A stretch of DNA of 64,000 bases. Source: a virus. Taxonomy: Duplodnaviria > Caudoviricetes. Where the stretch lies: IMG/VR virus record IMGVR_UViG_3300044656_000027, positions 32,001 through 96,000 of that record; one strand, written 5' to 3'. The notes beneath the pieces were generated by a model. It worked only from the letters and a program-made list of their open reading frames with translations, was not told the DNA's origin and ran no database searches. Positions 39,603 to 56,276 of this stretch are shown piece by piece (position 1 is the stretch's first letter; each line of letters opens with the position of its first letter). Position numbers and translations under genes: made by a program.

Positions 39603-40739
39603 TTACTCTGCGGTAGGCTTGATGATATCCCAAATTGTACTTGAAATATCCTTACCATCTAGCAAAAGAAACATAATTCCAGGGTGCGTAAGGTTTGCGT
39701 CCTTGACTGCAAGAGCAAAATCCTTACGAGTAAAATCTCTAGGAAGAGAGCTTACGATGCCGTCATAAAACAAAGTCTTCAAGATGAAGACCTTACGGTC
39801 ATAGTGATCCTGCAATTCCTTGTAAGTCTCCTGCAACCACGCGTGCCACTCATCCGGAACGATCTCAAGCAAGTCCGCAAGAGTCTTACCATCCTTCATG
39901 TTCTCCCAGACGCGCCGCTTGGTCAAACCTGTGACAACACGGTGCAGAGCAACGTAATCATCCTGCTTCACCTTGATACGGTAGTCAAGGTTCGGAAAGT
40001 AGACCACGTAACCCTCTGCATTAGCCCGTGGAGGGCACTCCAGCGCCTCTCTAAGCGTCTTGTAGGGAAAGACCTTGGTCTGCTCCCCATACCACTCGTA
40101 TTGGCTCGGAGAGAGCCGTACAAGCCCTGTGGAAAGGTTACGCGCACCTAGCCACGTAAGTCCCTTACGGTCACCGTAGTTGACGACGATTCGGTTCTCA
40201 GGGTAGATGATCTCTACCATGTATGTCCAGTTAGGATCAAGCAGACCTGTGTGCTGCTCCGCAAGCTTGCGCCCCATTACAGCCTGATCCGAATCGTAGG
40301 AACCCCGAGTGATAAGGGTCCACTTAGGCTCCCAAGGAGCGTAGTAAACAGCCGGAACAGAACGAACTGGGGTAGGGTCATGCCATCGGTCCTCAGGGAA
40401 CTGCTGGTTGTAACAGAAGAGGATACCAAGAGACCCGTCCATCTTGTCAGAGACGTGGACTGGCTCATCCATAAGCTGCTTGTCATCCTCAGACAGGTTC
40501 ATGAACTTGTCGAAAGGACGAGCCAGGACATTCCAGTTCTCATCAATTACAAGACCACGGCACTGCTTAGTTACCTCGTTCCACAGGTTATCGAACTGCG
40601 CCTTCTCGGTATACCCCAAAATTCTAAAAGTCTTCTTGTGCAAGTAGCTTACTTCAAGAGTAAACTCATTAACCCGAATATACTTCTCTCGAACCATTTG
40701 ACGGTAAAGATCCATATCCATCAAGTCCCAGAGCTTCAC
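39603..40739 (-). CDS. RNA ligase (T4 Rnl1-like)
   Basis: CRGLV, ARPFDKF.N, motif I KMDGSLG, TRGS, EII.P.NRIVV.Y, EGYVV, RIKVK; GTG start after GAGGAGG. Confidence 0.9.
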   Translation of the reverse strand: MKLWDLMDMDLYRQMVREKYIRVNEFTLEVSYLHKKTFRILGYTEKAQFDNLWNEVTKQCRGLVIDENWNVLARPFDKFMNLSEDDKQLMDEPVHVSDKMDGSLGILFCYNQQFPEDRWHDPTPVRSVPAVYYAPWEPKWTLITRGSYDSDQAVMGRKLAEQHTGLLDPNWTYMVEIIYPENRIVVNYGDRKGLTWLGARNLSTGLVRLSPSQYEWYGEQTKVFPYKTLREALECPPRANAEGYVVYFPNLDYRIKVKQDDYVALHRVVTGLTKRRVWENMKDGKTLADLLEIVPDEWHAWLQETYKELQDHYDRKVFILKTLFYDGIVSSLPRDFTRKDFALAVKDANLTHPGIMFLLLDGKDISSTIWDIIKPTAE

Positions 40740-41151
40740 GATTTGCCTCCTCCTCATAGGTTTCTAGAATCTCACGCGCCCAAGCTACCAGGTCTTCAAC
40801 CCTTTGTCCAAGAGGTTGCTTAGTTACCCAAAGTTCTAGATTTTCAAGACGATTGTCGTCTCGTACGCCATTCTTATGGTGCACATTCTCCCCTTTTCGA
40901 AGGGGTCTGTCAAGGTGTCTAGACATCACTAGCACATGCTCTAAAATAGTTCCATTTGCTTGTGCATTTGGATGTTCAGGAGCGTATACACGTCTATAAC
41001 CTTGCTCAGTAGTTGTGCCAGCTCCGTTAGCCGCACGTCGTCTCACGGGGCGTAGTTCTTGACCTTTAGACTGTTGCCAATAGTGTGCCCCACACAGTCC
41101 GCGTCCTGTCACTTTGCCTCCACAATCAGGGAAGCTGCATGTCTTCTTCAT
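40669..41151 (-). CDS. HNH homing endonuclease
   Basis: N-terminal C..C...C..H, EHVLVM...VHHKNGVRDDNRLENLELW. Confidence 0.9.
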   Translation of the reverse strand: MKKTCSFPDCGGKVTGRGLCGAHYWQQSKGQELRPVRRRAANGAGTTTEQGYRRVYAPEHPNAQANGTILEHVLVMSRHLDRPLRKGENVHHKNGVRDDNRLENLELWVTKQPLGQRVEDLVAWAREILETYEEEANREALGLDGYGSLPSNGSREVYSG

Positions 41152-41158
41152 AAACTTA

Positions 41159-41188
41159 ATTGTAGCATAGTTTAGATTCTAGTGTAAA
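41159..41188 (-). promoter_or_regulatory. leaderless promoter of HNH gene
   Basis: TTTACA-N18-TACAAT with extended TG, 7 nt to ATG. Confidence 0.55.
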
Positions 41189-41219
41189 AGAAAACCCCTG
41201 TCAAGAGACAGAGGCTTTC
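41186..41219 (-). terminator. terminator at 3' end of tRNA array
   Basis: AAAGCCTCTGTC...GACAGGGGTTTTCTTTT. Confidence 0.65.
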
Positions 41220-41226
41220 AGTGGAG

Positions 41227-41308
41227 TGGGTAGAGAGGGACTTGAACCCCCAGATCCGAAGAACGGGTTTTACAGACCCGCGCGCTACCAATTACGCTTT
41301 ACCTACCC
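41227..41308 (-). tRNA. tRNA-Tyr(GTA)
   Basis: Cloverleaf; CGGGT-CTGTAAA-ACCCG; long variable arm. Confidence 0.9.
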
Positions 41309-41309
41309 A

Positions 41310-41384
41310 TGGGGTGACCAACGGGGATCGAACCCGCGATACTTGAGTCACAGTCAAGCGTGTTACCGCTACACCATGGCCACC
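41310..41384 (-). tRNA. tRNA-His(GTG), G-1 and CCA encoded
   Basis: CTTGA-CTGTGAC-TCAAG. Confidence 0.92.
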
Positions 41385-41393
41385 ATGTGAAAG

Positions 41394-41464
41394 AGGGAAG
41401 CTAGGGACTCGAACCCTAAATGGCGGGGACACAATCCGCTATGTTACCGTTACATTAGCGACCC
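41394..41464 (-). tRNA. degenerate tRNA-like gene, GTG anticodon
   Basis: D and T arms intact; two acceptor mismatches; loop TTGTGTC. Confidence 0.55.
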
Positions 41465-41470
41465 ATAGAC

Positions 41471-41500
41471 ACTATATCGGATTGGAACAGTAAGTGTCAA
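41471..41500 (-). promoter_or_regulatory. internal tRNA-array promoter
   Basis: TTGACA-N18-TATAGT just upstream of 41464. Confidence 0.6.
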
Positions 41501-41501
41501 G

Positions 41502-41573
41502 TACGAACACCAAGAATTGAACTTGAAATTAGACTTTATCAGAGTCTCGTGATAACCGTTTCACCATGCTCGC
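41502..41573 (-). tRNA. tRNA-Ile(GAT)
   Basis: AGACT-CTGATAA-AGTCT. Confidence 0.85.
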
Positions 41574-41578
41574 ATTAT

Positions 41579-41887
41579 TTAAATATCCTCTAGCATGCGC
41601 TTAATGAAGCTCTTTGGCTTAGCTCCAACTGCATACTTAATGATACTGCCTTCGCGGAACAAAAGCAAGGTTGGTATAGATGAGATGTCGTACTTCTTAG
41701 TGAGGTTAGGATTCTCATCTGCGTTTACCTTGATGACCTTGAGCCAGTCGTTCTCTTCTGAGATAGACTCTAGCACAGGTGCCATCATCTTGCAAGGACC
41801 ACACCACTCAGCCCAGAAGTCAACTAATACGTACTTGTTATCAGCAATTACTGAATCGAATGTTATTTCTGATACTGCCTGCATCAT
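41579..41887 (-). CDS. trxA: thioredoxin
   Basis: LVDFWAEWCGPCK...SIPTL. Confidence 0.95.
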   Translation of the reverse strand: MMQAVSEITFDSVIADNKYVLVDFWAEWCGPCKMMAPVLESISEENDWLKVIKVNADENPNLTKKYDISSIPTLLLFREGSIIKYAVGAKPKSFIKRMLEDI

Positions 41888-41899
41888 CTCTCCTTTACG

Positions 41900-41972
41900 T
41901 AGGGCATAGAGGAATTGAACCTCTTATCGTTGGGATATAAGCCCACTGCATCGACCGTTATGCTAATGCCCC
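41900..41972 (-). tRNA. tRNA-Ile(TAT)
   Basis: TGGG-CTTATAT-CCCA; acceptor GGGGCAT/ATGCCCT. Confidence 0.8.
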
Positions 41973-42084
41973 AAAGCCCTGTCGCACATTCTCCGACTCT
42001 CTATGTAACCTCATTCGGACTACTGTGAGACTTCTCTACTAACCCTCGTTACACAGGGTGTTTGATGGCTCGGACTAGCCAAAG

Positions 42085-42168
42085 CGGAGGATGAGGGATT
42101 CGAACCCCCACGGCTTTTACACCGTATTGTTTTCAAGACAACTCCACGCCACCGATGTTAGATCCTCC
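42085..42168 (-). tRNA. tRNA-Ser(TGA)
   Basis: GTTGT-CTTGAAA-ACAAT; long variable arm; weak D arm. Confidence 0.8.
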
Positions 42169-42214
42169 ATGTGATAAGCCTTTTGGTTAGTAGGGCGCTT
42201 ATCTAATCCCTAAG

Positions 42215-42302
42215 CGGAGATAGAGGGATTCGAACCCTCGGGGCGATTTGAATACCCGCTGCCTTTCCAAGACAGTGCACTAGACCTCTATGCGATATCT
42301 CC
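42215..42302 (-). tRNA. tRNA-Ser(GGA)
   Basis: CTGTC-TTGGAAA-GGCAG; long variable arm. Confidence 0.88.
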
Positions 42303-42311
42303 ATTATTTAA

Positions 42312-42416
42312 TTAGCGTGGATCAGGATTCTTTGTTCCACACTTTGGGCAATACAGATTTCTCTTATCAGAAGGCATATAGCACTTTGGACAATAGAAGA
42401 TACTTCCACCAGACAT
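42312..42416 (-). CDS. 34-aa zinc-ribbon microprotein
   Basis: MSGGSIFYCPKCYMPSDKRNLYCPKCGTKNPDPR; TAATG-coupled. Confidence 0.75.
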   Translation of the reverse strand: MSGGSIFYCPKCYMPSDKRNLYCPKCGTKNPDPR

Positions 42417-42499
42417 TATCGTGCCACCTTGCAGTTATAGCAGTGACCGTACTTGTCCATGTTGATGTGACCACAATACTTACACTTCCAAAAGCTCAC
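42416..42499 (-). CDS. 27-aa RanBP2-type zinc-finger microprotein
   Basis: MSFWKCKYCGHINMDKYGHCYNCKVAR; GTGA-coupled. Confidence 0.75.
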   Translation of the reverse strand: MSFWKCKYCGHINMDKYGHCYNCKVAR

Positions 42500-42588
42500 T
42501 TTGGCTTACCCTTCATCCATCGACAGTGCCAGCACTTTGCTTTTGCTTCATTGTTGTACGAGCCGCAGTTATTGCATTTCCAACCCAT
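42496..42588 (-). CDS. 30-aa RanBP2-type zinc-finger microprotein
   Basis: MGWKCNNCGSYNNEAKAKCWHCRWMKGKPK; GGAGG RBS. Confidence 0.8.
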   Translation of the reverse strand: MGWKCNNCGSYNNEAKAKCWHCRWMKGKPK

Positions 42589-42601
42589 AATATCCTCCAA
42601 G

Positions 42602-42681
42602 CGGAAGGAGGAGGATTCGAACCCCCAGCTATTCACTGAACGGTTTAGCAAACCGTCTGCCAGACCCCTGACTCACCTTCC
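42602..42681 (-). tRNA. tRNA-Ser(GCT)
   Basis: ACGGT-TTGCTAA-ACCGT. Confidence 0.82.
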
Positions 42682-42685
42682 AAAG

Positions 42686-42762
42686 AGCGCAGCAGGAGAA
42701 TCGAACTCCAAACCAATCGCTTTGCAGGCGATCCCCAGACCATCCGAGTTAGGACACTGCGC
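42686..42762 (-). tRNA. tRNA-Cys(GCA), atypical enlarged D region
   Basis: ATCGC-CTGCAAA-GCGAT; U73. Confidence 0.75.
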
Positions 42763-42767
42763 ATAAG

Positions 42768-42847
42768 TGGAGCTGCGGGGATTCGAACCCCGGTGCTGAT
42801 AACTTCCGACATGCGGTTTTAATCACCAGACGAAACCAACCAGCCCC
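42768..42847 (-). ncRNA. mini-tmRNA: tRNA-like domain only
   Basis: GGGGCTG-GTTGGTTTCGTC 5' end, G3:U70, A73, canonical T arm, short helix 2 capped by GCATGTCG; no tag reading frame. Confidence 0.75.
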
Positions 42848-42944
42848 ATTGTGTCTGGCCTCATACGGGCTATTACCAGACTTGAAGTGCCCAGAGCCCG
42901 CACTTAGGGCTACTGTCCCGTAAAGGAATCTCGTCAGATTCCAG

Positions 42945-43015
42945 TACCCAGTGAGGGAATCGAACCCCCGCATGTGGTGTGTAAAACCACTGGTCTCCCA
43001 TTAACCTAACCGGGC
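42945..43015 (-). tRNA. tRNA-Val(TAC)
   Basis: GTGGT-TTTACAC-ACCAC. Confidence 0.88.
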
Positions 43016-43047
43016 AGGTAGAAGAACCGAAGTTCTTCTAGTATAGC

Positions 43048-43254
43048 TTAACTGCGATAGGCGATAAAGTCAACCGGCACGCTTTCCTCAACTCCATCGT
43101 GCCATCTGACATCTACGCAAGTGGTTCCCATCCAGTCGTACTCAGGGCAAAGAGTAACGCCTGAGTGATTACGACGAGAACCATTCCTACCAACAACATT
43201 GATCCCTCGGAAGTTGGAAGGTGCTTCCTTCTTCTTACGACCAAACAGACCCAC
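43048..43254 (-). CDS. hypothetical protein
   Basis: 68 aa, GGGGG RBS, GTG start. Confidence 0.65.
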   Translation of the reverse strand: MGLFGRKKKEAPSNFRGINVVGRNGSRRNHSGVTLCPEYDWMGTTCVDVRWHDGVEESVPVDFIAYRS

Positions 43255-43286
43255 TGTGTTCCCCTTCGTTAGTTGGTGTGTCTATC

Positions 43287-43565
43287 TTAGACCAGGTAGG
43301 ACCAAGTGTCAACACTACCGTCAGTGCGCTTGAGGCTAATGGATCGATTGACCTCACCCTCCTCAAACGTCCAAGCCATCAGACGCAGGTGGTACTCAGT
43401 GTCAAGGTGCTGGGGAAGACCCATCTCCTCAAGCTCACACAGAGCCTCCATCGTCTTAGCCACGTTGTAAGCGGCAACGGCAAAGCTCTCAACAGGAACC
43501 GTAGAGCTCTTCTTAAAGCCGTCCTTGGACTCGACATCAATAGTGAGTGTAGCCATTTTGTGCAT
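43287..43565 (-). CDS. hypothetical protein
   Basis: 92-aa ORF between tRNAs. Confidence 0.65.
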   Translation of the reverse strand: MHKMATLTIDVESKDGFKKSSTVPVESFAVAAYNVAKTMEALCELEEMGLPQHLDTEYHLRLMAWTFEEGEVNRSISLKRTDGSVDTWSYLV

Positions 43566-43587
43566 CCCTTCGATTGATACTATGACG

Positions 43588-43660
43588 TACCCTAGACAGG
43601 ATTCGAACCTGCATTGAACAGCTTAGAAGGCTGGTGAGTTATCCGTTACTCTACTAGGGC
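43588..43660 (-). tRNA. tRNA-Arg(TCT)
   Basis: CAGC-CTTCTAA-GCTG. Confidence 0.88.
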
Positions 43661-43687
43661 AAGAGGGACCGAAGTCCCGGATACTGC

Positions 43688-44242
43688 TTAGTCCCACCAC
43701 ATAGCCTTAGCATATAGTGGATTCTCTTCTATGTCAACGTCCCACCAGTTATCAACCTCAGCCCAACGCCAGATCGTTCCCCAGTCGTCGTATCCATTAG
43801 GTACTTCGATAGCAGAATTTGGATCAGTGTCAGCATGGTGTCCCATGTAGTTAATAGCCTGCTTGAGTTGCTGCTTGACGTTGTGTCTGCGAGCCTGACT
43901 TACAGCCTTCTTAGCGCCGTGTCGTGGCCAACCGTAGCCTATATCAGTTGCGTAGTATTTGCAACCATCACGCCAACGATTGTGCGTATGTGTCATTGGC
44001 TCATCAATATTACAAGGAACTTCCTCAGTCCAACGATCCCAGACGTGAACGGATTCTTGACGCTCTGGAATCTTGTAGTAACGCATTTCATCCCAATCCC
44101 AAACATACTTGGAAGGGATGGTAGTTACATCCGTACGAACATACTCTCTTCGATGACGCAGATGATTATGGACAGCCTCACGGCGTTCCTTAGAGTCATT
44201 AGAGCGAACCCAGTAAGGACGATCCTTGCGAGTGCGGGACAT
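43688..44242 (-). CDS. hypothetical basic protein (MSRT-x-K N-terminus)
   Basis: 184 aa, AAGGAG RBS. Confidence 0.75.
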   Translation of the reverse strand: MSRTRKDRPYWVRSNDSKERREAVHNHLRHRREYVRTDVTTIPSKYVWDWDEMRYYKIPERQESVHVWDRWTEEVPCNIDEPMTHTHNRWRDGCKYYATDIGYGWPRHGAKKAVSQARRHNVKQQLKQAINYMGHHADTDPNSAIEVPNGYDDWGTIWRWAEVDNWWDVDIEENPLYAKAMWWD

Positions 44243-44353
44243 ATTTACTCCCTTGTTAGTGCTAAAGCAAATGCCAGTATTTAGAGGAACTGGCTGGCCT
44301 CCCGTTCATTGAGACTTTCTAGGGTGTGTTTCAGAACGGCTTAGATATCCCTG

Positions 44354-44429
44354 CACGGATGACAGGAGTTGAACCTGCATGTGTCCTTTAACCTTTCTAC
44401 GCGTTCGTAGCGCGAGGGTATACATCCGC
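44354..44429 (-). tRNA. atypical rewired tRNA-Arg(ACG)-like RNA
   Basis: Acceptor GCGGATG/CATCCGT and T arm intact, no D arm; CGCG-CTACGAA-CGCG hairpin followed by long linker with TAAAGG. Confidence 0.65.
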
Positions 44430-44840
44430 ATTAAGTTGCCACCAATTAAACTGTCTGGCAGTTCTGTATCTGTGACATTTGACACAACGAATATCGCACT
44501 TAGCGATCTCAGTTTGTAAAACTTCTAAACTAAGCTTTCGCTTAATACCATCCGCTATATTAAAACTTTTGGTTTCTGGATCTCGATGATCAAAGTCCAG
44601 AAGGACTATATCAGACTCGCCACAATCTATACAGGGATTCTGATCATAGTAATTTACTAAGTAAGTTCTAACCTTTACTAGGTACTTCTCATCATTACGC
44701 CGTGCCTTAGCCAAGTAGCTTTGCTTATTAGCTTGATAATGCTCACGAGTATACTTACGATGACAAGGCTTACACATTGCACTCTTAGTTGCGAACTCTT
44801 CTTTGGCCAACTCTTGGTTGCACCTACTACATGTTTTCAT
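44397..44840 (-). CDS. HNH homing endonuclease
   Basis: CSRC...CKPC; CIDCGE.D...LDFDH.D....EIAKCDIRC..CHR. Confidence 0.88.
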   Translation of the reverse strand: MKTCSRCNQELAKEEFATKSAMCKPCHRKYTREHYQANKQSYLAKARRNDEKYLVKVRTYLVNYYDQNPCIDCGESDIVLLDFDHRDPETKSFNIADGIKRKLSLEVLQTEIAKCDIRCVKCHRYRTARQFNWWQLNADVYPRATNA

Positions 44841-44860
44841 GCTACTAATTATAGCATAGG

Positions 44861-44898
44861 TTCGTAGGCAAGTGCTCTATCCGTTGAGCTATAGCACC
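44861..44898 (-). pseudogene. 5' half of conventional tRNA-Arg(ACG), truncated after the anticodon loop
   Basis: GGTGCTATAGCTCAACGGATAGAGCACTTGCCTACGAA then unrelated HNH promoter sequence. Confidence 0.75.
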
Positions 44899-44906
44899 AT
44901 ACTTTG

Positions 44907-45410
44907 TTACTTCTTTAAACTTAGCAGATAATCTCTTATAGCACCAGGACTTGTCAAGTATGCTGGCTTGTTAGACAGCTTGGAACCCGCCAAATCGTAA
45001 TCCTCAGCACAGAGTTGAGAGCAGATCAAGTGCTTGCTGTTAAGAACTCTAGCAGAGATCCAAGGAAGAGGCAAGTGCAGTCTCTTCGTGAAAATCGCAA
45101 AGTAATCCAGGAAACTGTATGGTGTGCCAATCTGATTGGTTGCTAGAGTAACGATAGTCACTCTTTGCTGAGCTGTCAAATCAATCAGACCAGAGGACCA
45201 CAGGATCTCTCGTCCATCGTACTTCGACAAGTTAGTTCTGATAGCACCACCAGGTTGAGCTTCTACGATCTCACCATTACCAATGTAAATGAAGGCATGC
45301 TCATAGTTGGAGAAGCCATCTCCGTTAAGCCACTGGCCTAAGCGAATCAGCTTGCCCACAGTACCGTTGATACTTACTAAGCCTACATCACCTGGTAATA
45401 GTTCCGCCAC
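44907..45410 (-). CDS. permuted papain-like NlpC/P60 (YiiX/YaeF-like) amidase
   Basis: PGD...HAFIY.GNG.IVEA...IGTPY...ICSQL. Confidence 0.82.
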   Translation of the reverse strand: MAELLPGDVGLVSINGTVGKLIRLGQWLNGDGFSNYEHAFIYIGNGEIVEAQPGGAIRTNLSKYDGREILWSSGLIDLTAQQRVTIVTLATNQIGTPYSFLDYFAIFTKRLHLPLPWISARVLNSKHLICSQLCAEDYDLAGSKLSNKPAYLTSPGAIRDYLLSLKK

Positions 45411-45540
45411 TACACTTCTCCTTGTGCTTAAAGAATGCTTTCTCTGCTTCACCCTCAGAGTCAAATGGACCCTCAGAATGCCTACCAGTAGCGCACTCGT
45501 GAGTAAACTTCCACTTACCTGGTCTATGTTGAATGACCAT
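45388..45540 (-). CDS. 50-aa hypothetical protein
   Basis: MVIQHRPGKW..., GGAGG RBS right after tRNA-Lys. Confidence 0.6.
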   Translation of the reverse strand: MVIQHRPGKWKFTHECATGRHSEGPFDSEGEAEKAFFKHKEKCSGGTITR

Positions 45541-47265: not shown

Positions 47266-47709
47266 CTAGCTTATCAGATTATGAACGTAATGGGAAGCTT
47301 CATAGTCTGACGCTGATGCATTGTGGATGCCTCCGTGTCCTCTGTGGTGCTTAGCACACAGGAACATGAAGTTCTCTTCTGATTCTACCCAAGCGCCCAC
47401 TTCATTAGGATCAGAGATCCCAGGGAAGTCCTGCTCTAGGTACTTCAAGTCTACACCCTGCTGCATGCTGAATTCAACATGGCTGTGGTGTAGCTCCAGA
47501 CCTCCAGCACACTCGGAAGTATCTCCGCCACGACGTAATGCGAATTCGCATACAGCGTCCTTGACGTGAGTCTTACGATAGTGCTCAAAGTCACGATAAT
47601 GTGGATCATCCTTTCTAGCTGGATGAGCCGGAAATGCTACTGTGTAATGCTTAGTTTCAGCTTGTGTATGCGCTTCTACTACCTTACCCATACTGGCCCT
47701 ATCTGTCAA
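47266..47709 (-). CDS. hypothetical protein with HNH-like Cys/His pattern
   Basis: C...C...LELHH...N...LCAKHH.....IH. Confidence 0.65.
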   Translation of the reverse strand: MTDRASMGKVVEAHTQAETKHYTVAFPAHPARKDDPHYRDFEHYRKTHVKDAVCEFALRRGGDTSECAGGLELHHSHVEFSMQQGVDLKYLEQDFPGISDPNEVGAWVESEENFMFLCAKHHRGHGGIHNASASDYEASHYVHNLIS

Positions 47710-48288: not shown

Positions 48289-48633
48289 TTATTCCAATTC
48301 AGTAATCGGTATCCAGCCCTTGCCCTCACGGCCCTCTACTAGAAGGTTACGAGGCTCCATGTCTCTGGCTACTCTGTCTTCAACCTTCTCAAGCCCATGA
48401 AGGGTCCTGTGTGTCCATATGCGGAACTTTGAGGACTCTGCCATACGTCTGAATGCCAAACGCTTGTTGATCAGCTGAGAGCGCTCCTCACGGCTTTCAC
48501 CTACAGCACCGGAAGGCTTATGAATTACTCTTACGCCCGTTTCGCGCTTATTCTGATTCTGACCACCCTTTCCTCCTGAACGGAAGGTTTGGACCTCACA
48601 ATCATGAATAGTCACGCTAAATGCTTTTTCCAT
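48289..48633 (-). CDS. stand-alone GGQ peptide chain release factor domain (RF-1/ArfB/PrfH-like)
   Basis: [26 protein letters not shown]......ERSQ..NK..A. Confidence 0.9.
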
Positions 48634-48914: not shown

Positions 48915-48915
48915 A

Positions 48916-49081
48916 ATGTGGATAGTTGGATTCGATGATTACCAACAAGGCATTTCCTACGTCATACAGTAAATACCTACCATCCCTTTGGGTGCTACCC
49001 AAGACCGCTAAGTCAGGATGTGCGTTCGACCCATAGGCGAGTCTTTTCCGCCATATCCGGTCAGCATGATCAGTGCCGACT
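48916..49081 (-). ncRNA. candidate structured ncRNA between two tRNA-Thr genes
   Basis: Six or more short helices visible; no convincing ORF seen. Confidence 0.35.
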
Positions 49082-50443: not shown

Positions 50444-50527
50444 TATATTCTCCTAGTTATTATCACAATGTAGTGACAGTATATCAGAGAATAGAAAAAG
50501 CCCCTGTAATACAACAGGGGCCTTAAG

Positions 50528-50818: not shown

Positions 50819-50941
50819 TCTTACCTCCTACGTAAGTGGTCTTCCCGTAGTCAGTGTGCACCTGACTTTTCCCGTACGTTCCTGCTGCTAGCTAGCGTTC
50901 ACGTCTGTAGAGTGTTGTATCCCAGTTAAGGGACGGGGGCG

Positions 50942-51012
50942 CTGGGGCGCAGAGATTCGAACTCCGATAGGCTGATCCAAAGTCAGCAGTCCTGCCATTA
51001 GACGAAACCCCA
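50942..51012 (-). tRNA. tRNA-Gln(TTG)
   Basis: GCTGA-CTTTGGA-TCAGC. Confidence 0.88.
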
Positions 51013-51028
51013 TTAAATTTGCTGCAAG

Positions 51029-51099
51029 CTCCCCGACATGGATTCGAACCACGATTTCTTCGTCCAGAGCGAAGCGTGCTGCCCTTACACCATCAGGGA
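51029..51099 (-). tRNA. tRNA-Gln(CTG)
   Basis: CTTCG-CTCTGGA-CGAAG. Confidence 0.9.
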
Positions 51100-51137
51100 A
51101 TAAGTGCCCTGCTATTGCTAGCTGTTTATGGGCTAAG

Positions 51138-51210
51138 TACCGTATAGGAGACTCGAACTCCTTCGTTCACTTTGGAAGAGTGACATGCTGCCATTAAACA
51201 TCAATACGGC
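51138..51210 (-). tRNA. tRNA-Gly(TCC)
   Basis: TCACT-CTTCCAA-AGTGA. Confidence 0.88.
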
Positions 51211-51287
51211 ATTGCTTGTAGTCAGGCGGTTCTTTCAGGTTCTACAAGCTCCTCTGTCGCTACATATCGCAGCAACCGCCAGGAAAC

Positions 51288-51683
51288 TTAGTAATCGTCG
51301 TGAGATTCGTCTTCATCCCATTCAGGAACACACCAACCGCAATCACACCAGTCTTCGTAGTATTCCTCTTCCTCTTCGTCCTCATAACCAATCAAAGTTA
51401 CTACAGGACCCGCAGAGGTTACATCTACGTCAACAATACGGTCAGAACCATCCTGAACCTCAGCAGATACTCCCCAACCCGTTTCAGAACCATATTCAGC
51501 CTTCATAAGCTCCTCAATGAGGATACGAGTCAGATATGGAGTATCGTACTTGCGATTAAGTGCTCTTCCGACGCTTAGACCTGTCATAACCATTGCTGGC
51601 AGGTCCGACCCATTCCAGTGAGTGTAAATGTACACACCTGGACGATTTCCTTCATGAATGTATACGTTAGCTCTATCTCCCAT
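51288..51683 (-). CDS. hypothetical protein with acidic tail
   Basis: MGDRANV...VYIYTHW.G motif; leaderless start. Confidence 0.75.
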   Translation of the reverse strand: MGDRANVYIHEGNRPGVYIYTHWNGSDLPAMVMTGLSVGRALNRKYDTPYLTRILIEELMKAEYGSETGWGVSAEVQDGSDRIVDVDVTSAGPVVTLIGYEDEEEEEYYEDWCDCGWCVPEWDEDESHDDY

Positions 51684-51690
51684 GTGAGAG

Positions 51691-51719
51691 ACTGTACTAC
51701 ATTCACTTGAAGATGTCAA
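51691..51719 (-). promoter_or_regulatory. leaderless promoter
   Basis: TTGACA-N17-TACAGT, 7 nt to ATG 51683. Confidence 0.65.
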
Positions 51720-51720
51720 G

Positions 51721-51804
51721 TGGTAGCGGAGGCGGGATTTGAACCTCTTTGTGCGATCTCTAGCTTATGAGGCTAGCGAGATGACCTAGCTTCTCTACTC
51801 CGCG
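51721..51804 (-). tRNA. initiator-like tRNA-Met(CAT) with T-stem insertion, CCA encoded
   Basis: C1:U72 mismatch, CTAGC-CTCATAA-GCTAG, extra ACAAAG in T stem. Confidence 0.7.
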
Positions 51805-51806
51805 AG

Positions 51807-51878
51807 TACCGGGAGTGGGAATCGAACCCACGACGACAAGGTTATGAATCTTGCGTTCTACCATTGAACTATCCCGGC
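51807..51878 (-). tRNA. tRNA-Met(CAT)
   Basis: CAAG(A)-TTCATAA-(C)CTTG. Confidence 0.85.
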
Positions 51879-51888
51879 AAAAGATATG

Positions 51889-51961
51889 TGCCGCCTGTAG
51901 GACTCGAACCTACGACCTGTCGGGCTTCAACCGACCGCTCTTCCAACTGAGCTAAAGCGGC
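51889..51961 (-). tRNA. tRNA-Phe(GAA)
   Basis: GTCGG-TTGAAGC-CCGAC. Confidence 0.92.
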
Positions 51962-52035
51962 AATACGAGTAATTACTATGTTTAGTACCCTAGTCCATTA
52001 TATTTAGCGGTATTTACTAGTCTATTACTCAAACT

Positions 52036-52110
52036 TGGTCGTCTTTGTGGGGCTGGACCCACTCCTCTGCCCTCCCACGGACAGTGTGCAACCGGTTACA
52101 CCATTAGACG
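52036..52110 (-). tRNA. atypical tRNA-Pro-like gene (8-nt anticodon loop, non-canonical T loop, CCA encoded)
   Basis: C1-G72, A73, CTGTC-CGTGGGAG-GGCAG, T loop TCCAGC. Confidence 0.55.
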
Positions 52111-52115
52111 ATAAG

Positions 52116-52187
52116 TCGGGTACCGGGGAATCGAACCCCGTTTATCCTGATCCCAAATCAGGCGGATTACCATCTTCCTCGTACCCG
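52116..52187 (-). tRNA. tRNA-Pro(TGG)
   Basis: CCTGA-TTTGGGA-TCAGG. Confidence 0.88.
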
Positions 52188-52244
52188 AGGGCTCATAGGA
52201 CGGAAGGGAAACATCCTATGAGCTTTTCGAAAGGAGGCAAGATC

Positions 52245-52273
52245 AGTATAACTCATCTTCTTCCTTAATGCAA
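52245..52273 (-). promoter_or_regulatory. promoter at head of tRNA array
   Basis: TTGCAT-N17-TATACT, followed by hairpin 52192-52224. Confidence 0.55.
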
Positions 52274-52274
52274 A

Positions 52275-52412
52275 TCAAGTCTTACGATACTGCTTAACGT
52301 GCTTATCGCACATCTTGCGCCATTCTCCTTTGAACCATACTAGCTCAGCCGCCTTGTTATGGCAAGCTCTGAACCAGCATTGCTTACCGACTGGATAGTA
52401 TTTAAAAGGCAT
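52275..52412 (-). CDS. 45-aa Cys/His microprotein
   Basis: Not in track: MPFKYYPVGKQCWFRACHNKAAELVWFKGEWRKMCDKHVKQYRKT. Confidence 0.55.
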   Translation of the reverse strand: MPFKYYPVGKQCWFRACHNKAAELVWFKGEWRKMCDKHVKQYRKT

Positions 52413-52415
52413 GAC

Positions 52416-52640
52416 TTACAGTAGCACGGTCGCCACATCGTTGTCAACGTGTGCGATAAGGATCTCACCAGAACGCAAGCTTAGTCTGATACCGATTTCG
52501 TCCTTGGTGGGCTCTACGTGCTCCCATACTATATTCCAGCCGCCTTGCTTGTCAAGCTGTTCCTCTGTGACGTACAGATGACCACCAAGTTGCTTGATAG
52601 CCGCTACAAGCATTCTAGCTAACTGTTGCTCCGTTGTCAC
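52416..52640 (-). CDS. hypothetical protein
   Basis: 74-aa ORF in operon. Confidence 0.6.
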   Translation of the reverse strand: MTTEQQLARMLVAAIKQLGGHLYVTEEQLDKQGGWNIVWEHVEPTKDEIGIRLSLRSGEILIAHVDNDVATVLL

Positions 52641-52827
52641 GCTTGCTCATCTCCCGAACTGTGCGGTTAAGGTGTTCGTTGGCCTCTAAGACCTCTGAGA
52701 AATGGCTCTGTGCCGCCTTACAGGCGATTTGAGCTACCTCATGGACGAATGTGTTCTCGTCTGGAGTATAGGGCTTTAGAGAGGCTGTCAGAGCATCTAG
52801 GATCTCTGTGAATAGTTCGTTCTTCAT
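52615..52827 (-). CDS. hypothetical protein
   Basis: 70-aa ORF in operon. Confidence 0.6.
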   Translation of the reverse strand: MKNELFTEILDALTASLKPYTPDENTFVHEVAQIACKAAQSHFSEVLEANEHLNRTVREMSKRDNGATVS

Positions 52828-52828
52828 A

Positions 52829-53017
52829 TTAAAGCTCCGGGTATCTCAACTTCTCGTCATCCGGAACCTCAAGGTTGTCAACTAGCTTCTCAAGCACAGT
52901 TCGGATGTAAACGGTAATTCCTAAGCCAAGCTTATCTGCTTCCTTCTGCAAACGCTCAAGAGTGTTCTTGTGCAACCGCAGAGAGCGGGATACCATGGCC
53001 TTGCTTTCCTGACTCAT
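52829..53017 (-). CDS. ribbon-helix-helix (CopG-like) DNA-binding protein
   Basis: SRSLRL....LERLQKEADKLGL..TVYIR.VLE. Confidence 0.75.
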   Translation of the reverse strand: MSQESKAMVSRSLRLHKNTLERLQKEADKLGLGITVYIRTVLEKLVDNLEVPDDEKLRYPEL

Positions 53018-53032
53018 TCTTCTCCTATCGAT

Positions 53033-53497
53033 TTATGAGGTTGGTGCAGGAAGAGCAAGTGTAGCACAGATTACCAGAGCTACTGCAACGATTGAGACAG
53101 CGAATGTCTGTACCAGAGCAGTCTTCCAACCCAGATCCTCCTTCTTCATGTACGCTACCACAAAGGTCATACCAATGTAAATACCAACAGCAGACCAGAG
53201 GGCTACTGTTCCTCCTATGAACGCAAAAGGTATCACAGGAGCGAAACAGCCTATAGCAGTAAAGATACCCATATAAGTAGCAGAACGTAGTCTAGTTCTC
53301 TTGGGTATAGACTTATCTGAGGATAGATATTCTCCTAGTCCCATAGAGATAGCTGAACTAACAGCTAATCCTATACAAGTAACAAAGACTAGTACATGAG
53401 AGAAAGCTAATAGAGGGATTAATACTCCTAGTAAAGAAGTTAATCCATCAAACATTCCAAATATAGAAGGCTTAAGTAAGTCTTTATCTATCTTCAT
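53033..53497 (-). CDS. VIT1/CCC1 family metal (Fe/Mn) transporter-like protein
   Basis: IFGMFDGL...G....A.SMGLGEYLS...G...PVIPF; start refined to MKIDK (the track's TTG is the -35 box). Confidence 0.82.
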   Translation of the reverse strand: MKIDKDLLKPSIFGMFDGLTSLLGVLIPLLAFSHVLVFVTCIGLAVSSAISMGLGEYLSSDKSIPKRTRLRSATYMGIFTAIGCFAPVIPFAFIGGTVALWSAVGIYIGMTFVVAYMKKEDLGWKTALVQTFAVSIVAVALVICATLALPAPTS

Positions 53498-53522
53498 AAC
53501 TATCTTTCTAATATAAATATTA

Positions 53523-53585
53523 AGGGTAGCAGAGAGTGGTACATCTGTCAAGTCCTTGACTTTGTACTACGATCTCTGGTAGAGT
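53523..53585. promoter_or_regulatory. back-to-back divergent promoters at strand switch
   Basis: Minus TTGACA-N17-TACCCT (53551-53523); plus TTGACT-N18-TAGAGT (53556-53585). Confidence 0.65.
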
Positions 53586-53635
53586 CTACCTAACGGGGGA
53601 AGTGGTGGGGGTACACCAATGATAGAAGGTCAACA

Positions 53636-53827
53636 ATGGCTCTTGGTAACTATCGTAGCGTAGAAGATTGCAGCTACGGAAAGATTGGTCCTTGTCTCTT
53701 GAAGAGTCATCCTCAAGAGCATAAGCTAGAGGCTACATGCCTTAATGCTATGTCTGGTTTCTTCTACAATCAGGGCAATTTCGGAAAGACATTCCAGCAA
53801 TTCTTGGATGCAGTAAGAAAGAAGTAA
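53636..53827 (+). CDS. hypothetical protein
   Basis: First ORF of plus-strand operon. Confidence 0.6.
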   Translation: MALGNYRSVEDCSYGKIGPCLLKSHPQEHKLEATCLNAMSGFFYNQGNFGKTFQQFLDAVRKK

Positions 53828-53829
53828 TA

Positions 53830-54249
53830 ATGGAACGCTTGGGACAGAAGAACCAAAGCTCCTATTATTCTAAACCGATTACACGGATACACGCTGACTT
53901 CAACGGTATCTGTGCTTTATGCGGTGGATATGTGGAGCTTAAGGATGCATCCCGAGACCATATCATCCCTCGCTCAGAAGGCGGGGGTAATGGCCGGGAT
54001 AACATTCAATTAACGCACAAGAAGTGCAATAACCTAAAGGGTAACGTCGTTTACCCGAAGAATTGGCAAGAACAGCTCCAGCGGGAGATGGTGATCCCAC
54101 AGGGATATCGCTGCCGTTACTGTGAAATGCCGATTACCAATCAGCATAAGAAGCACAAGTGGGTAGTCAAGGTTATGAGCCATAAGGGTCATGTAGAGGC
54201 GCTGCACTCTTGGTGTAACGAAGAGAGGATCAAGTATGGTAAGCGTTGA
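53830..54249 (+). CDS. HNH endonuclease
   Basis: CALCG...DHIIPRSEGG.....N.QLTH..CN..KG. Confidence 0.85.
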   Translation: MERLGQKNQSSYYSKPITRIHADFNGICALCGGYVELKDASRDHIIPRSEGGGNGRDNIQLTHKKCNNLKGNVVYPKNWQEQLQREMVIPQGYRCRYCEMPITNQHKKHKWVVKVMSHKGHVEALHSWCNEERIKYGKR

Positions 54250-54427
54250 TGAAATTCGCAATATGACCATGTCCGAGTATGCTATTTGGCGCAATACTGT
54301 GCTTATTCCTACTGGAGACTATACAGAAATCAAAGATTATGATTATTATCGTGAATTGTATGTCACCACAGGAGACTGGCGCTATTTCTATTCAATGCTA
54401 GAGAAAGTAGACCCAAATGGCTGGTAA
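54236..54427 (+). CDS. 63-aa protein with scaffold C-terminus-like N-terminal helix
   Basis: EIRNMTMSEYAIWR vs scaffold DIANMSMSEYAKFR. Confidence 0.7.
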   Translation: MVSVDEIRNMTMSEYAIWRNTVLIPTGDYTEIKDYDYYRELYVTTGDWRYFYSMLEKVDPNGW

Positions 54428-54956
54428 TACGCCAATAATGCTATTAGACGTTGACGGACCACTTAATCCTTATGCGGCTAAGGCAAATAAGCGTCCAGAG
54501 GGCTATACAGTCCATAGAATGACTCCAACCGGCTGGGAAGACAATCCTTTGCACGTTTGGCTCAATCATTCAATGGGTGCGCAGCTAAAAAGCCTTGGAT
54601 ATGAGATTATTTGGGCTACAACTTGGGCTAAGGATGCCAACGAGTGGATTTCTCCGCACATTGGCCTTCCTACGGACCTAGAGTGCATCGAATGGGGTCC
54701 ACATGGAGCAGAGATCGAGCAACCGGGTCTTAGAAAGCTCTATTGGAAGACTCCGCAGATCGCAGCCTGGATGCATGAGCATTATCCGGATCGTCCGTTC
54801 ATTTGGGTGGATGATGAGGCTTTCAAGAAGGATGAGAAATATTTGAAGTCAAAGCTAGGCCAGCCTTTGAAGGTTTTCACCATTAATCCTGCAAAGGGCA
54901 TTGATGATGACGATTTAAAGGACTTCAAGGACTGGAAGGACGATTTGGGTGGCTAG
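54417..54956 (+). CDS. HAD-family phosphatase (Swiss-army-knife RNA-repair-like HAD)
   Basis: LLDVDGPLNP, IIWATTW, WK, FIWVDD. Confidence 0.82.
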   Translation: MAGNTPIMLLDVDGPLNPYAAKANKRPEGYTVHRMTPTGWEDNPLHVWLNHSMGAQLKSLGYEIIWATTWAKDANEWISPHIGLPTDLECIEWGPHGAEIEQPGLRKLYWKTPQIAAWMHEHYPDRPFIWVDDEAFKKDEKYLKSKLGQPLKVFTINPAKGIDDDDLKDFKDWKDDLGG

Positions 54957-55140
54957 ATTCAGTGAGGAGGAGGTATTTACCCTCCTCCTTCTGGTTAATT
55001 ACGAGAAGAATCAGGTTTTGGACAACTCTCGGGAAGCTTACGTGCCTGAATATGTTGGCCATTTGACTAATCTCGGTGAAAAGTTGAACAGATATTACGA
55101 TAAGCACTATCCAGAGGACGAATACGATGGCGGACATTGA
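54949..55140 (+). CDS. hypothetical protein
   Basis: Coupled ORF. Confidence 0.6.
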   Translation: MARFSEEEVFTLLLLVNYEKNQVLDNSREAYVPEYVGHLTNLGEKLNRYYDKHYPEDEYDGGH

Positions 55141-55315
55141 CAGAAGAGCCTTTAGAAGTTTCACTTACCGCAAATGTCGTGCGGAATGGGACGCTGAGAA
55201 GGGTTTGTGGGTTACAGCAGACCCAAATGGCCATCATTTGATCAGTTCTTCTGACAAAGACGGCATTAAGAGTTATCTCGATGATTATTTGGAGGTATAT
55301 TATGAGCTTGTTTAA
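55127..55315 (+). CDS. small beta-beta-beta-alpha protein, paralog A
   Basis: FTYRK...W.....W.....G....S...GIKSYLD. Confidence 0.65.
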   Translation: MADIDRRAFRSFTYRKCRAEWDAEKGLWVTADPNGHHLISSSDKDGIKSYLDDYLEVYYELV

Positions 55316-55466
55316 CAAGGACGCGTTTAACTACAAGGGTTATAGCATTTACAAGGACCCTGAGAACGGTAAATGGATAATCCGTAAGGGTGGCCGCTAT
55401 GGTGTAAACGTCGATCAGGCGGATAGTAAGGACCAGGCCAAGCGTATTGTGGATAACTTGACGTAA
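55302..55466 (+). CDS. small beta-beta-beta-alpha protein, paralog B
   Basis: FNYKGYSI.....GKW....G....ADS..QAKRIVD; GGAGG RBS. Confidence 0.7.
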   Translation: MSLFNKDAFNYKGYSIYKDPENGKWIIRKGGRYGVNVDQADSKDQAKRIVDNLT

Positions 55467-55500
55467 ATTGGACTTATAAATCAAAGGATCGGAAGAGGCA

Positions 55501-55668
55501 ATGAGAAAGCCGGATATCCATTACAGAGGTTTTACTATGTCGTGGAACGAATATCAAGGTTACTGGGCTATCTATAAGGATGGCGAGAGTATGTCCTGGA
55601 AGTCAAAGCCTAATGAAGCTGACGCCAAGAGGGCAATCGATAAGTATTTGAAGGGTGAAGACGACTGA
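55501..55668 (+). CDS. small beta-beta-beta-alpha protein, paralog C
   Basis: Not in track: MRKPDIHYRGFTMSWNEYQGYWAIYKDG...DAKRAIDKYLKGEDD; TGATG-coupled to next gene. Confidence 0.7.
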   Translation: MRKPDIHYRGFTMSWNEYQGYWAIYKDGESMSWKSKPNEADAKRAIDKYLKGEDD

Positions 55669-56276
55669 TGAAGTATTTTATTGACACCGAGTTCCTTGAG
55701 AACGGCATTACTATTAAGCCGATCTCTATTGGAATCGTCCGAGAGGACGGCGAAGAGTATTATGCCGTTAATTCAGACCTTAGTTTGATGGAAAGAGCCT
55801 ATGAACACCCATGGCTCAATAAGAATGTCCTGTGTCATCTTCCGCTTTTCGTGGATTATGATGGTGATCTGGTCTGGGATCAGTCCCACGAGGACTTCAA
55901 GAACGTAAAGTCTCTTGCACAGATCGCGGATGATGTGAAGTATTTCATTAGCCAGGACGCTCAGCCAGAGCTCTGGTACTACTATGGTGCTTATGCCCAC
56001 GTTGTTCTTGCCCAGTTGTTCGGGACTATGGTACATATGCCTATGGGTATCCCACAGTGGGGACATGAGCTGATGCAGGAGATTGAGAAGGAGCGTGGAT
56101 TCACCCCCAAGGCGCAGCTTGAAGGGGCTCACAACGCTCTAGCAGACGCTCGGTGGACCAAGAGCGTATATGACGACATTGAGCACCGGAGAATGGCTTC
56201 TGCGGTCATGGGTGGAAAGGCTCTTCCTATTCCTGCTTTTCCAACCGCAAACCCCGGAAGAACACGAATGTGGTAG
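55668..56276 (+). CDS. DEDDh 3'-5' exoribonuclease (Rv2179c/DUF5051-like)
   Basis: FIDTEF...ISIGIV.EDG.EYYAV...QLFG.M..P...HNALADARW. Confidence 0.85.
   Translation: MKYFIDTEFLENGITIKPISIGIVREDGEEYYAVNSDLSLMERAYEHPWLNKNVLCHLPLFVDYDGDLVWDQSHEDFKNVKSLAQIADDVKYFISQDAQPELWYYYGAYAHVVLAQLFGTMVHMPMGIPQWGHELMQEIEKERGFTPKAQLEGAHNALADARWTKSVYDDIEHRRMASAVMGGKALPIPAFPTANPGRTRMW

Follow-up and report, generated by a model that had tools for sequence, protein, structure and literature searches.

A translation-support island of probably separable modules in an actinobacterial phage: TLD-only tmRNA, stand-alone GGQ protein, complete tRNA set and RNA repair enzymes

Phage T4 Pnkp and Rnl1 repair tRNA against the anticodon nuclease PrrC. 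A tmRNA consisting only of the tRNA-like domain (TLD) is present in the 60-kb temperate phage DS6A, and a similar molecule has been described to inhibit tmRNA in E. coli (PMC4131195, PMC11915505). The tmRNAs of jakobid and oomycete mitochondria that lack the mRNA module, and the CDS-less forms of plastids, are likewise natural tmRNAs cut down to the TLD (as cited in PMC11915505 and PMC7050145); they still co-occur with SmpB, implying that they help to rescue ribosomes without adding a tag. In the bacterial PrfH-RtcB2 rescue-and-repair operon, a GGQ factor is genomically linked to an RNA ligase (PMC9304027, PMC9223846, PMC12829566). Stand-alone GGQ domains also occur as ArfB (YaeJ) and ICT1, and actinophages encode proteins annotated as RF-1 peptide chain release factor (ScottMcG gp204 in cluster C, Nanosmite gp140, and WXIN), for which the literature searched yielded no functional study.

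The window analysed here (64,000 nt; positions 32,001 to 96,000 of IMG/VR record IMGVR_UViG_3300044656_000027) belongs to the complete 111-kb genome of an actinobacterial (Streptomyces-type), soil-type phage. All components listed in a first-pass annotation were confirmed in it: 32 tRNAs, a TLD-only tmRNA (mini-tmRNA), a GGQ protein, Rnl1, a HAD phosphatase and an Rv2179c-type DEDDh exoribonuclease (Table 1). Each is of a known kind, and it is rather likely that the mini-tmRNA, the GGQ protein and the repair enzymes are independent modules and not parts of one two-step rescue machine. The best reading, which we regard as probable, is a translation-support island whose modules would act in parallel, the mini-tmRNA competing with host tmRNA via host SmpB. 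What the modules may do in the phage, and how it may benefit, we infer from the identities of the components, the structure and covariation of the RNA, the selection acting on its alanine identity elements and the pattern of co-occurrence, together with the published inhibition of tmRNA by a DS6A-type TLD in E. coli and the T4 Pnkp/Rnl1 pathway.

Table 1. Features of the locus (window coordinates unless marked as genome)
Feature	Position	Strand	Evidence or context
T4 Rnl1-type RNA ligase, 384 aa	39603..40757	-	RNA_lig_T4_1 7.6e-15, full model; phrog_562 1.3e-65
HNH endonuclease ORF	40669..41151	-	Pfam HNH_3 1e-07; between last tRNA (Tyr) and Rnl1
tRNA array, 32 genes, all 20 amino acids	41226..52187	-	ARAGORN; Rfam; order matches relative G016
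TLD-only mini-tmRNA	42765..42847	-	Rfam tmRNA RF00023, 58.2 bits vs gathering score 47
Weak tRNA-like element	44354..44429	-	Rfam tRNA 27.1 bits, below gathering score 29
Stand-alone GGQ (RF-1 domain) peptidyl-tRNA hydrolase, 114 aa, phrog_3122	48289..48633	-	PF00472 4.3e-16; phrog_3122 2.6e-42
HAD-superfamily phosphatase, 179 aa, HAD_SAK_2 'Swiss-army-knife RNA repair' type	54417..54956	+	PF18143 5.1e-11
DEDDh 3'-5' exoribonuclease, Rv2179c family, 202 aa	55668..56276	+	PF16473 2.3e-12; phrog_2259 8.5e-46
T4-type Pnkp (kinase + HAD_PNKP)	genome 29914-30801, 1.2-2.1 kb before window start		phrog_505 4.6e-90

The RF00023 match of the mini-tmRNA spans model positions 1–374 with ~290 positions deleted, which leaves the tRNA-like domain only. 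The mature RNA (~42768–42847, 80 nt) is followed by C-U-U in place of CCA; it is located 97 nt downstream of tRNA-Val and 2 nt upstream of tRNA-Cys. It contains G3:U70 and A73, the D-loop analogue typical of tmRNAs, a P2a-like helix of 7 bp and a T arm; a tag ORF and pseudoknots are absent. Two scans of viral contigs yielded at least ~120 mini loci each, including 93 unique sequences among the first-scan matches listed; 94 of the 119 loci among the matches listed have tRNA-free surroundings. In all 85 sequences compared, the acceptor and T-stem pairs that the search left unconstrained are Watson-Crick or GU, drawn from 4–6 pair types; P2a pairs 4–6 are paired in 84 of them. With the acceptor stem left free in the search, G3:U70 was found in 111 and A73 in all 113 of the minis among the matches listed, so alanine charging is, on this sequence evidence, under selection in the class, and the phage mini-tmRNA is very likely alanine-charged. 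The earlier proposal that the mini-tmRNA accepts the nascent chain thus gains the charging it requires, but its coupling to the GGQ protein is unsupported (see below).

The CDS-less tmRNA of DS6A (JN698994, 28478–28560) aligns with the window copy over its full length. Both are phage-borne RNAs of ~80 nt with G3:U70, A73, the D-loop analogue, a short hairpin-closed P2a and a T arm, and both lack the tag ORF and pseudoknots. However, the DS6A mini was not seen within a tRNA array, whereas the window copy lies inside one, and at its G.A/A.G helix base the latter has GUC/GCAC, the rarer variant. The organellar forms are inherited vertically and use SmpB of the same organism, whereas the phage would borrow that of its host.

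A genome search found neither an SmpB gene nor a CCA-adding enzyme gene in the phage, and the mini-tmRNA would therefore depend on host factors. We propose that it is transcribed and processed together with the adjoining tRNAs, that its CCA end is completed by host enzymes and alanine added by host AlaRS, and that, since the phage encodes no SmpB, it would bind that of the host. Most likely it competes with host tmRNA through host SmpB; with both SmpB and stalled ribosomes contested, nascent chains made during infection would carry no ssrA degradation tag and at most one added alanine. The strictly conserved alanylation determinants argue for a role of the mini beyond titrating SmpB, which counts against a pure competitor. 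It may itself accept the nascent chain, which something must then release.

The GGQ protein lacks codon-recognition domains and a basic ArfB-type tail. Over 3100 homologues are conserved with it along the whole length, and the best fold matches of its AF2 model (pLDDT 80.6) are to domain 3 of RF1, RF2 and PrfH. Like ArfB and ICT1, it is a stand-alone GGQ domain that would work without codon recognition, but their basic C-terminal tail, which probes the empty mRNA channel, is missing: the last 45 residues are of mixed charge and modelled as helices and a beta-hairpin, and in sequence and fold domain 3 of RF1, RF2 and PrfH resembles the protein more closely than ArfB or ICT1 does. The actinophage RF-1 proteins mentioned above belong to the same phrog_3122 family (55–69% full-length identity, 110–120 aa, same GGQ motif). 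Homologues occur in 258 phage records, among them mycobacteriophages of clusters C and M that carry full tmRNAs; cluster C phages and Nanosmite carry a full-length tmRNA and WXIN none, and, unlike the window phage, none of them has a mini. The family is thus found with full-length tag-coding tmRNAs, without tmRNA, or, in some phages, adjoining RtcB. As a bare release-factor catalytic domain, the protein could hydrolyse peptidyl-tRNA on stalled ribosomes or split large subunits, and would act as an independent rescue factor; no part of it that could sense the state of the ribosome is visible, so a partner may be required.

The RNA repair function previously assigned to Rnl1 and a phosphatase is sound, and is strengthened by a genuine Pnkp accompanying the ligase. 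Rnl1 contains the nucleotidyl-transferase motif I KMDG. Like T4, the phage encodes both a full-length Pnkp (kinase and HAD phosphatase) and a ligase of the Rnl1 type; as differences from the T4 system, the two genes lie ~41 kb apart and are accompanied by a complete tRNA set. Together they would heal and seal tRNAs cleaved by host anticodon nucleases. Since a full T4-type Pnkp is encoded, the HAD_SAK_2 protein (DVDG motif, no PHROG match) is not needed as the 3'-phosphatase. The Rv2179c-like protein matches PDB 6s0m/4oke at 5e-22, with its DTEF and H..D motifs aligned. Both enzymes are candidate accessory RNA-end enzymes, and the exoribonuclease plausibly trims the 3' trailers of CCA-less tRNAs and the mini-tmRNA.

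An alternative, which we consider unlikely, is that the GGQ protein and phage RNA ligases form a release-and-repair pair analogous to PrfH-RtcB2, to which the mini-tmRNA is unrelated: the GGQ protein would free ribosomes blocked by tRNA or rRNA that nucleases have damaged, and Rnl1/Pnkp, or RtcB in other phages, would reseal the RNA. There is precedent in PrfH-RtcB (PMC9304027, PMC9223846, PMC6514570), PrfH ranks near the top when the GGQ protein is matched by sequence or by fold, and some phage homologues directly adjoin RtcB (45–704 nt away on the same strand at five loci, L133, L136, L140, L142 and L155, of at least two lineages), while at L130 and L131 GGQ, Rnl1 and Pnkp lie inside 8 kb. 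RNA ligases were found in 16/50 GGQ-bearing but only 3/50 mini-bearing records (Fisher p = 0.0017), a difference confounded by record length and lineage and not significant among complete records (10/22 vs 2/12, p = 0.14). Such a ligase is absent from more than half of the complete GGQ phages. In the window phage the ligase is Rnl1 and, unlike RtcB2, is not adjacent to the GGQ gene, which lies 7.5 kb from it and ~50 kb from Pnkp. The domain 2/4-like part by which PrfH senses the damaged decoding centre is missing from the phage protein, and the complete syntenic relative G016 keeps Rnl1 (54–56% identity) without GGQ.

The central claim of the first-pass annotation, a dedicated two-step, tag-free rescue in which alanylated mini-tmRNA with host SmpB takes the stalled chain and the phage GGQ protein then hydrolyses it, appears improbable. 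Its logic is clear: the TLD-only RNA provides neither a resume codon nor a stop codon after transfer, so a codon-independent hydrolase would be required; alanine identity is strictly conserved across the mini class; both genes lie within one array on the same strand; and at least four other large phages (G033, G045, G060 and G094) have both. However, co-occurrence, which the annotation had itself named as the check, is largely absent. A GGQ domain was found in 2/50 mini-bearing viral records, many metagenomic records being fragments, so that absences in incomplete ones are weak evidence, and in 2 of the 12 complete ones. DS6A, the type example of the mini, has no GGQ gene in its genome, and G016 has none either, although it keeps the mini (orthologous to the window copy) at the orthologous position, the tRNA order and Rnl1. 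Conversely, a GGQ gene is mostly accompanied by a full-length, tag-coding tmRNA or by none at all: among 50 GGQ-bearing records, ~10–11 have a full-length tmRNA, 2 a clear mini and the rest none; among the 22 complete ones the counts are 7–8, 2 and 12. The two genes never adjoin (5–32 kb apart in phages with both; 5.4 kb here, and 9.3 and 31.6 kb elsewhere where both positions are known), and the GGQ protein has no tail or domain able to sense an empty mRNA channel. Nevertheless, the share of records with both mini and GGQ (4% overall, 17% among the complete) is far above chance for two rare genes among 2.9 million viral contigs, so the two may act in facultative synergy in large phages.

That the mini has no function of its own, being either what is left of a phage tmRNA that was once full-length or an attachment-site fragment, is strongly disfavoured and barely credible: full-length tmRNAs do occur in related large actinophages and ARAGORN did not call the mini, but more than 100 distinct minis are of uniform size (mostly 78–80 nt), each of their helices shows compensatory changes and their identity elements do not vary, the syntenic position is conserved in G016 despite ~70% genome identity, the presence of both 5' and 3' halves argues against an att fragment, and no integrase was found among the conserved neighbours of minis.

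Under the preferred reading of parallel modules, the tRNA array, which is interrupted by small ORFs, would give decoding capacity and spare copies. Rnl1 had been described as directly downstream of it, but the HNH ORF, probably a homing endonuclease outside any rescue function, sits between. The Rfam gathering score is reached by 28 of the 32 tRNAs. Inspection of the 3' ends showed an encoded CCA in 2/32, nearly all of the genes stopping at discriminator + C, a format common to the mini-tmRNA and the array tRNAs. The earlier count of ~34 tRNA or tRNA-like genes for 20 amino acids agrees with the 32 ARAGORN tRNAs, the weak tRNA-like element bringing the total to ~34; at the syntenic spot of this element, G016 has a normal tRNA-Arg(acg) (L029:3023–3096).

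All of the parts listed for this region in the first-pass annotation were recovered with ARAGORN, Rfam, Pfam, PHROG and PDB, namely the tRNA set, a TLD-only tmRNA (a tRNA-like domain without a tag frame, hereafter mini-tmRNA), a GGQ domain, an Rnl1 RNA ligase, a HAD phosphatase and a DEDDh exoribonuclease. Rnl1 had also been placed directly downstream of the tRNA array, a position that did not hold, as an HNH endonuclease ORF intervenes. The window (bases 32001-96000, GC content ~48%) belongs to a source record of 111,289 bp that has direct terminal repeats and a completeness rating of 100%. Since a megablast of the tRNA array against cultured phages matched Streptomyces phages alone, and these just at individual tRNA genes, and the protein relatives are mostly from actinophages, the host can only be inferred; it would be actinobacterial, probably Streptomyces.

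Features of the translation region and its surroundings (window coordinates unless marked genome; G016 is a complete syntenic relative and L029 its locus)
Feature	Coordinates	Strand	Basis or remark
Pnkp, 295-aa ORF	genome 29914-30801 (1.2-2.1 kb before window start)		phrog_505, 4.6e-90 over 1-295
Rnl1 RNA ligase	39603-40757	-	Pfam RNA_lig_T4_1, 7.6e-15, full model 1-227; KMDG motif
HNH endonuclease ORF	40669-41151	-	separates Rnl1 from tRNA array
tRNA array, 32 genes, all 20 amino acids	41226-52187	-	ARAGORN
Mini-tmRNA	42765-42847	-	Rfam RF00023, 58.2 bits (gathering score 47)
Weak tRNA-like element	44354-44429	-	27.1 bits, sub-threshold; syntenic slot holds a normal tRNA-Arg(acg) in G016 (L029:3023-3096)
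HNH endonuclease ORF	47266-47709	-	
GGQ/RF-1 domain protein, 114 aa	48289-48633	-	Pfam RF-1, 4.3e-16; phrog_3122
HNH endonuclease ORF	53830-54249	+	
HAD_SAK_2 phosphatase	54417-54956	+	Pfam, 5.1e-11, model 2-137 of 139; DVDG at residues 11-14
Rv2179c-type DEDDh exoribonuclease	55668-56276	+	Pfam, 2.3e-12; PDB 6s0m/4oke, 5e-22

The mini-tmRNA is flanked by tRNA-Cys (at 2 nt) and tRNA-Val (at 97 nt). In its alignment to RF00023, model positions 1-37 are joined straight to the last ~50, with ~290 positions deleted. It has the tRNA-like domain of tmRNA, retaining a 7-bp acceptor stem with G3:U70, the discriminator A73, a perfect T arm, a stemless D-loop analogue (GGUUUCG), a 7-bp P2a-like helix and a small hairpin. 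The mRNA-like domain (resume codon, tag frame and stop) is absent, only 39 nt separating the T arm from the D-loop analogue, and the 80 nt leave no room for pseudoknots PK1-PK4, which are likewise missing. Single-sequence folding gave an inner helix that differed in part, at a modest z-score (-2.46), and the comparative structure was preferred. ARAGORN, run on the window, called neither a tmRNA nor a tag at this position; it also misses the full-length tmRNA of phage Nanosmite.

Mycobacteriophage DS6A was already known to have a TLD-only tmRNA, and a molecule similar to the DS6A TLD reportedly inhibits tmRNA strongly in E. coli, where titration of SmpB may be the cause (PMC4131195; PMC11915505). 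In the DS6A genome the unannotated copy lies at 28478-28560, and it aligns with the mini-tmRNA of the window. The window copy falls within the DS6A-type class, whose phage-encoded members of ~75-85 nt combine an acceptor stem and GGxUUCGxC with a P2a-like helix (G.A base), a small hairpin, GGAC/GCAC and a T arm. A search of viral contigs with a TLD pattern that allowed an insert of 20-50 nt gave at least 119 viral loci, with 93 unique sequences among the matches listed, mostly of 78-80 nt. As a MAFFT alignment of 85 unique sequences misplaced their 5' ends, an anchor-based script was used to count pairs. Those positions of the acceptor and T stems that the pattern left free were paired in all 85, with 4-6 pair types, pairs 4-6 of P2a were formed in 84/85, and the tmRNA-specific G.A/A.G base of P2a was kept. 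A second pattern, in which the acceptor stem was left wholly unconstrained, gave 113 unique sequences among the matches listed, including 50 that the first pattern had not yielded. All 113 carry A73 and 111 carry G3:U70, whereas pairs 4-6 varied freely. Because the two identity elements persist in a search that did not constrain the acceptor, alanine charging of the class appears to be under selection, which goes beyond, and would argue against, a purely passive SmpB sponge. The base following A73 is almost always C across the class, even where CCA is not encoded.

In uncultured phages TLD-only tmRNAs are common, but they escape annotation because ARAGORN misses them. Most stand apart from tRNA genes: among the matches listed, 94/119 loci have no tRNA, and about 8 lie in big arrays like the present one. 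Clustering of the ORFs within 3 kb of these 119 loci identified neither an integrase, SmpB nor a GGQ protein as a conserved partner; the recurrent neighbours were only lineage-specific structural (head) genes encoding portal, prohead protease and capsid. One phage lineage, represented by about 20 viral loci (L122:5430-5508, L008 and L073 among them), has the mini-tmRNA within its head-gene module, where it is flanked by the genes for the prohead protease and the major capsid protein and has no tRNA in its vicinity.

The GGQ protein corresponds to the catalytic domain of RF1/RF2, and its GGQ motif is invariant in 33 homologues. Domains 1 and 2/4, the latter with the PxT/SPF codon-recognition motif, are absent, the Pfam match covering model positions 5-67 only. 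The AlphaFold model (pLDDT 80.6) is a single small compact domain, for which a fold search returned domain 3 of RF1/RF2, mtRF1 and PrfH as the best matches, with ArfB-type proteins, ICT1 and C12orf65 scoring low. Whereas ArfB and ICT1 bind the vacant mRNA channel through a basic C-terminal tail, the GGQ protein has no such tail; its C-terminal region is of mixed charge and predicted to be structured. The family comprises more than 3100 small proteins conserved end to end, and in 258 phage records its members go under the SEA-PHAGES label 'RF-1 peptide chain release factor'. This phage GGQ-only family is large, and sometimes occurs in an operon-like pair with RtcB.

In a rival, less likely reading of its role, by analogy with the PrfH-RtcB2 pair of bacteria (PMC9304027, PMC9223846, PMC6514570), the GGQ protein might act as a partner of an RNA ligase. 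At five GGQ loci on viral contigs, from at least two lineages (L133, L136, L140, L142 and L155), RtcB is encoded 45-704 nt from the GGQ gene on the same strand, an arrangement that is the counterpart of bacterial prfH-rtcB with a GGQ-only protein, and two further GGQ loci have Rnl1 and Pnkp within 8 kb. An Rnl1 or RtcB ligase was present in 16/50 GGQ-bearing records vs 3/50 mini-tmRNA-bearing records (Fisher p = 0.0017), but the association was not significant among complete records (10/22 vs 2/12, p = 0.14). Furthermore, PrfH consists of a GGQ domain and a domain 2/4-like sensor and its gene lies beside rtcB, whereas the phage protein lacks the sensor domain. RtcB was not found in the examined flanks of the GGQ gene of the window, and Rnl1 is 7.5 kb off.

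The first-pass annotation had proposed a two-step, tag-free rescue, in which the mini-tmRNA accepts the chain and the GGQ protein releases it; such a system would be expected to show in the co-occurrence of the two genes. An RF-1 domain was encoded in 2/50 mini-tmRNA-bearing records (2/12 among those at least 90% complete). In the opposite direction, 50 long GGQ-bearing records, 22 of them complete, were examined: full-length tmRNA (81-105 bits, 310-440 nt) was found in about 10-11, clear mini-tmRNAs (82 nt, 46-47 bits) in 2, doubtful ones in a few and none in the remainder, the complete records comprising 7-8 with full tmRNA, 2 with a mini-tmRNA and 12 with none. Individual phages illustrate the combinations: Nanosmite carries full tmRNA, RtcB and GGQ; WXIN has GGQ without a tmRNA; DS6A has a mini-tmRNA without GGQ. 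The closest comparison is G016, a complete genome of 112,476 bp that is collinear with the present phage (65-77% nucleotide identity over 20 kb), with an identical tRNA order, the mini-tmRNA in the same slot between tRNA-Val and tRNA-Ser(gct), and an Rnl1 ortholog of 54-56% identity; neither profile nor protein search found a GGQ protein in it. In phages with both genes, the distance between them is 5.4 kb (present phage), 9.3 kb or 31.6 kb. Given the low co-occurrence in both directions, the GGQ-less G016 and DS6A, and the wide spacing, the mini-tmRNA and GGQ do not form an obligate pair. They nevertheless occur together far more often than two independent rare genes would, an excess mostly explained by both residing in large, translation-gene-rich actinophages, and a facultative synergy is conceivable. 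A dedicated route in this lineage, or in the minority of large phages with both genes, in which an alanine-charged mini-tmRNA takes stalled ribosomes from host tmRNA and adds one Ala without a degradation tag before the GGQ factor hydrolyses the peptidyl-mini-tmRNA, would constitute a phage-private, tag-free ribosome rescue, and we consider it improbable.

The region is probably better read as a set of parallel modules, with the mini-tmRNA competing with host tmRNA and GGQ serving as an independent hydrolase. The enzymes of RNA repair conform to known types. Pnkp combines a P-loop kinase (AAA_33, 3.5e-15) with a HAD 3'-phosphatase (HAD_PNKP, 7.6e-47), as does T4 Pnkp. Rnl1 has the KxDG lysine and C-terminal domain of T4 Rnl1, the phrog_562 match extending to residue 382; its assignment is based on Pfam, PHROG and motif I, and phmmer against PDB gave no sequence match. 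The HAD_SAK_2 protein has the HAD fold and the DxD nucleophile motif, and the exoribonuclease is Rv2179c-like, its DTEF and H-x4-D motifs aligning with those of 6s0m/4oke. In T4, Pnkp and Rnl1 repair nuclease-cut tRNAs. The 3' ends of 30/32 tRNA genes and of the mini-tmRNA consist of the discriminator and C followed by non-CA bases, so that CCA is not encoded, and neither SmpB nor a CCA-adding enzyme was found in the phage genome. Under the parallel-module reading, i) the tRNAs would supply decoding, ii) Pnkp and Rnl1 would mend cut tRNAs in the T4 manner, iii) the exonuclease may trim CCA-less trailers, iv) the mini-tmRNA would be processed together with the tRNAs, after which host enzymes would add its CCA and charge it with alanine, v) bound by host SmpB, it would compete with host tmRNA, whereby chains stalled in infection would escape the ssrA degron, and vi) release of the chain would be left to any available codon-independent hydrolase, a host factor in most phages, with the GGQ protein as an extra, independent one.

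Every component has a precedent, in the DS6A mini-tmRNA, actinophage RF-1 proteins, T4 Pnkp and Rnl1, and phage tRNA arrays, and the locus contributes another member rather than a new principle. The strict selection on alanine identity turns the fate of the mini-tmRNA after alanine transfer into a concrete experimental question. If it blocks ssrA tagging in infection, it would be a simple, portable off-switch for trans-translation and also a counter-measure against host defences that cut mRNA or tRNA.

Several other elements lie in or near the array. The weak tRNA-like element probably represents an Arg tRNA that has degenerated or been rearranged. The three HNH endonuclease ORFs are dispersed in and beside the array, and are likely homing endonucleases that contribute to its shuffling. 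At 48915-49080(-), exactly between tRNA-Thr(cgt) and tRNA-Thr(tgt), the manA RNA motif (RF01745) is matched over its full model (1-192) at just below threshold (52.6 bits, E 5e-13; gathering score 55.2). Three genes, at 41579-41887(-), 53033-53551(-) and 44907-45464(-), have no obvious link to translation. They encode a thioredoxin (2e-29), whose gene is inside the array, and, nearby, a membrane protein of the VIT1 family (iron/manganese transporter-like) and a protein resembling crotonase (phrog_1128).
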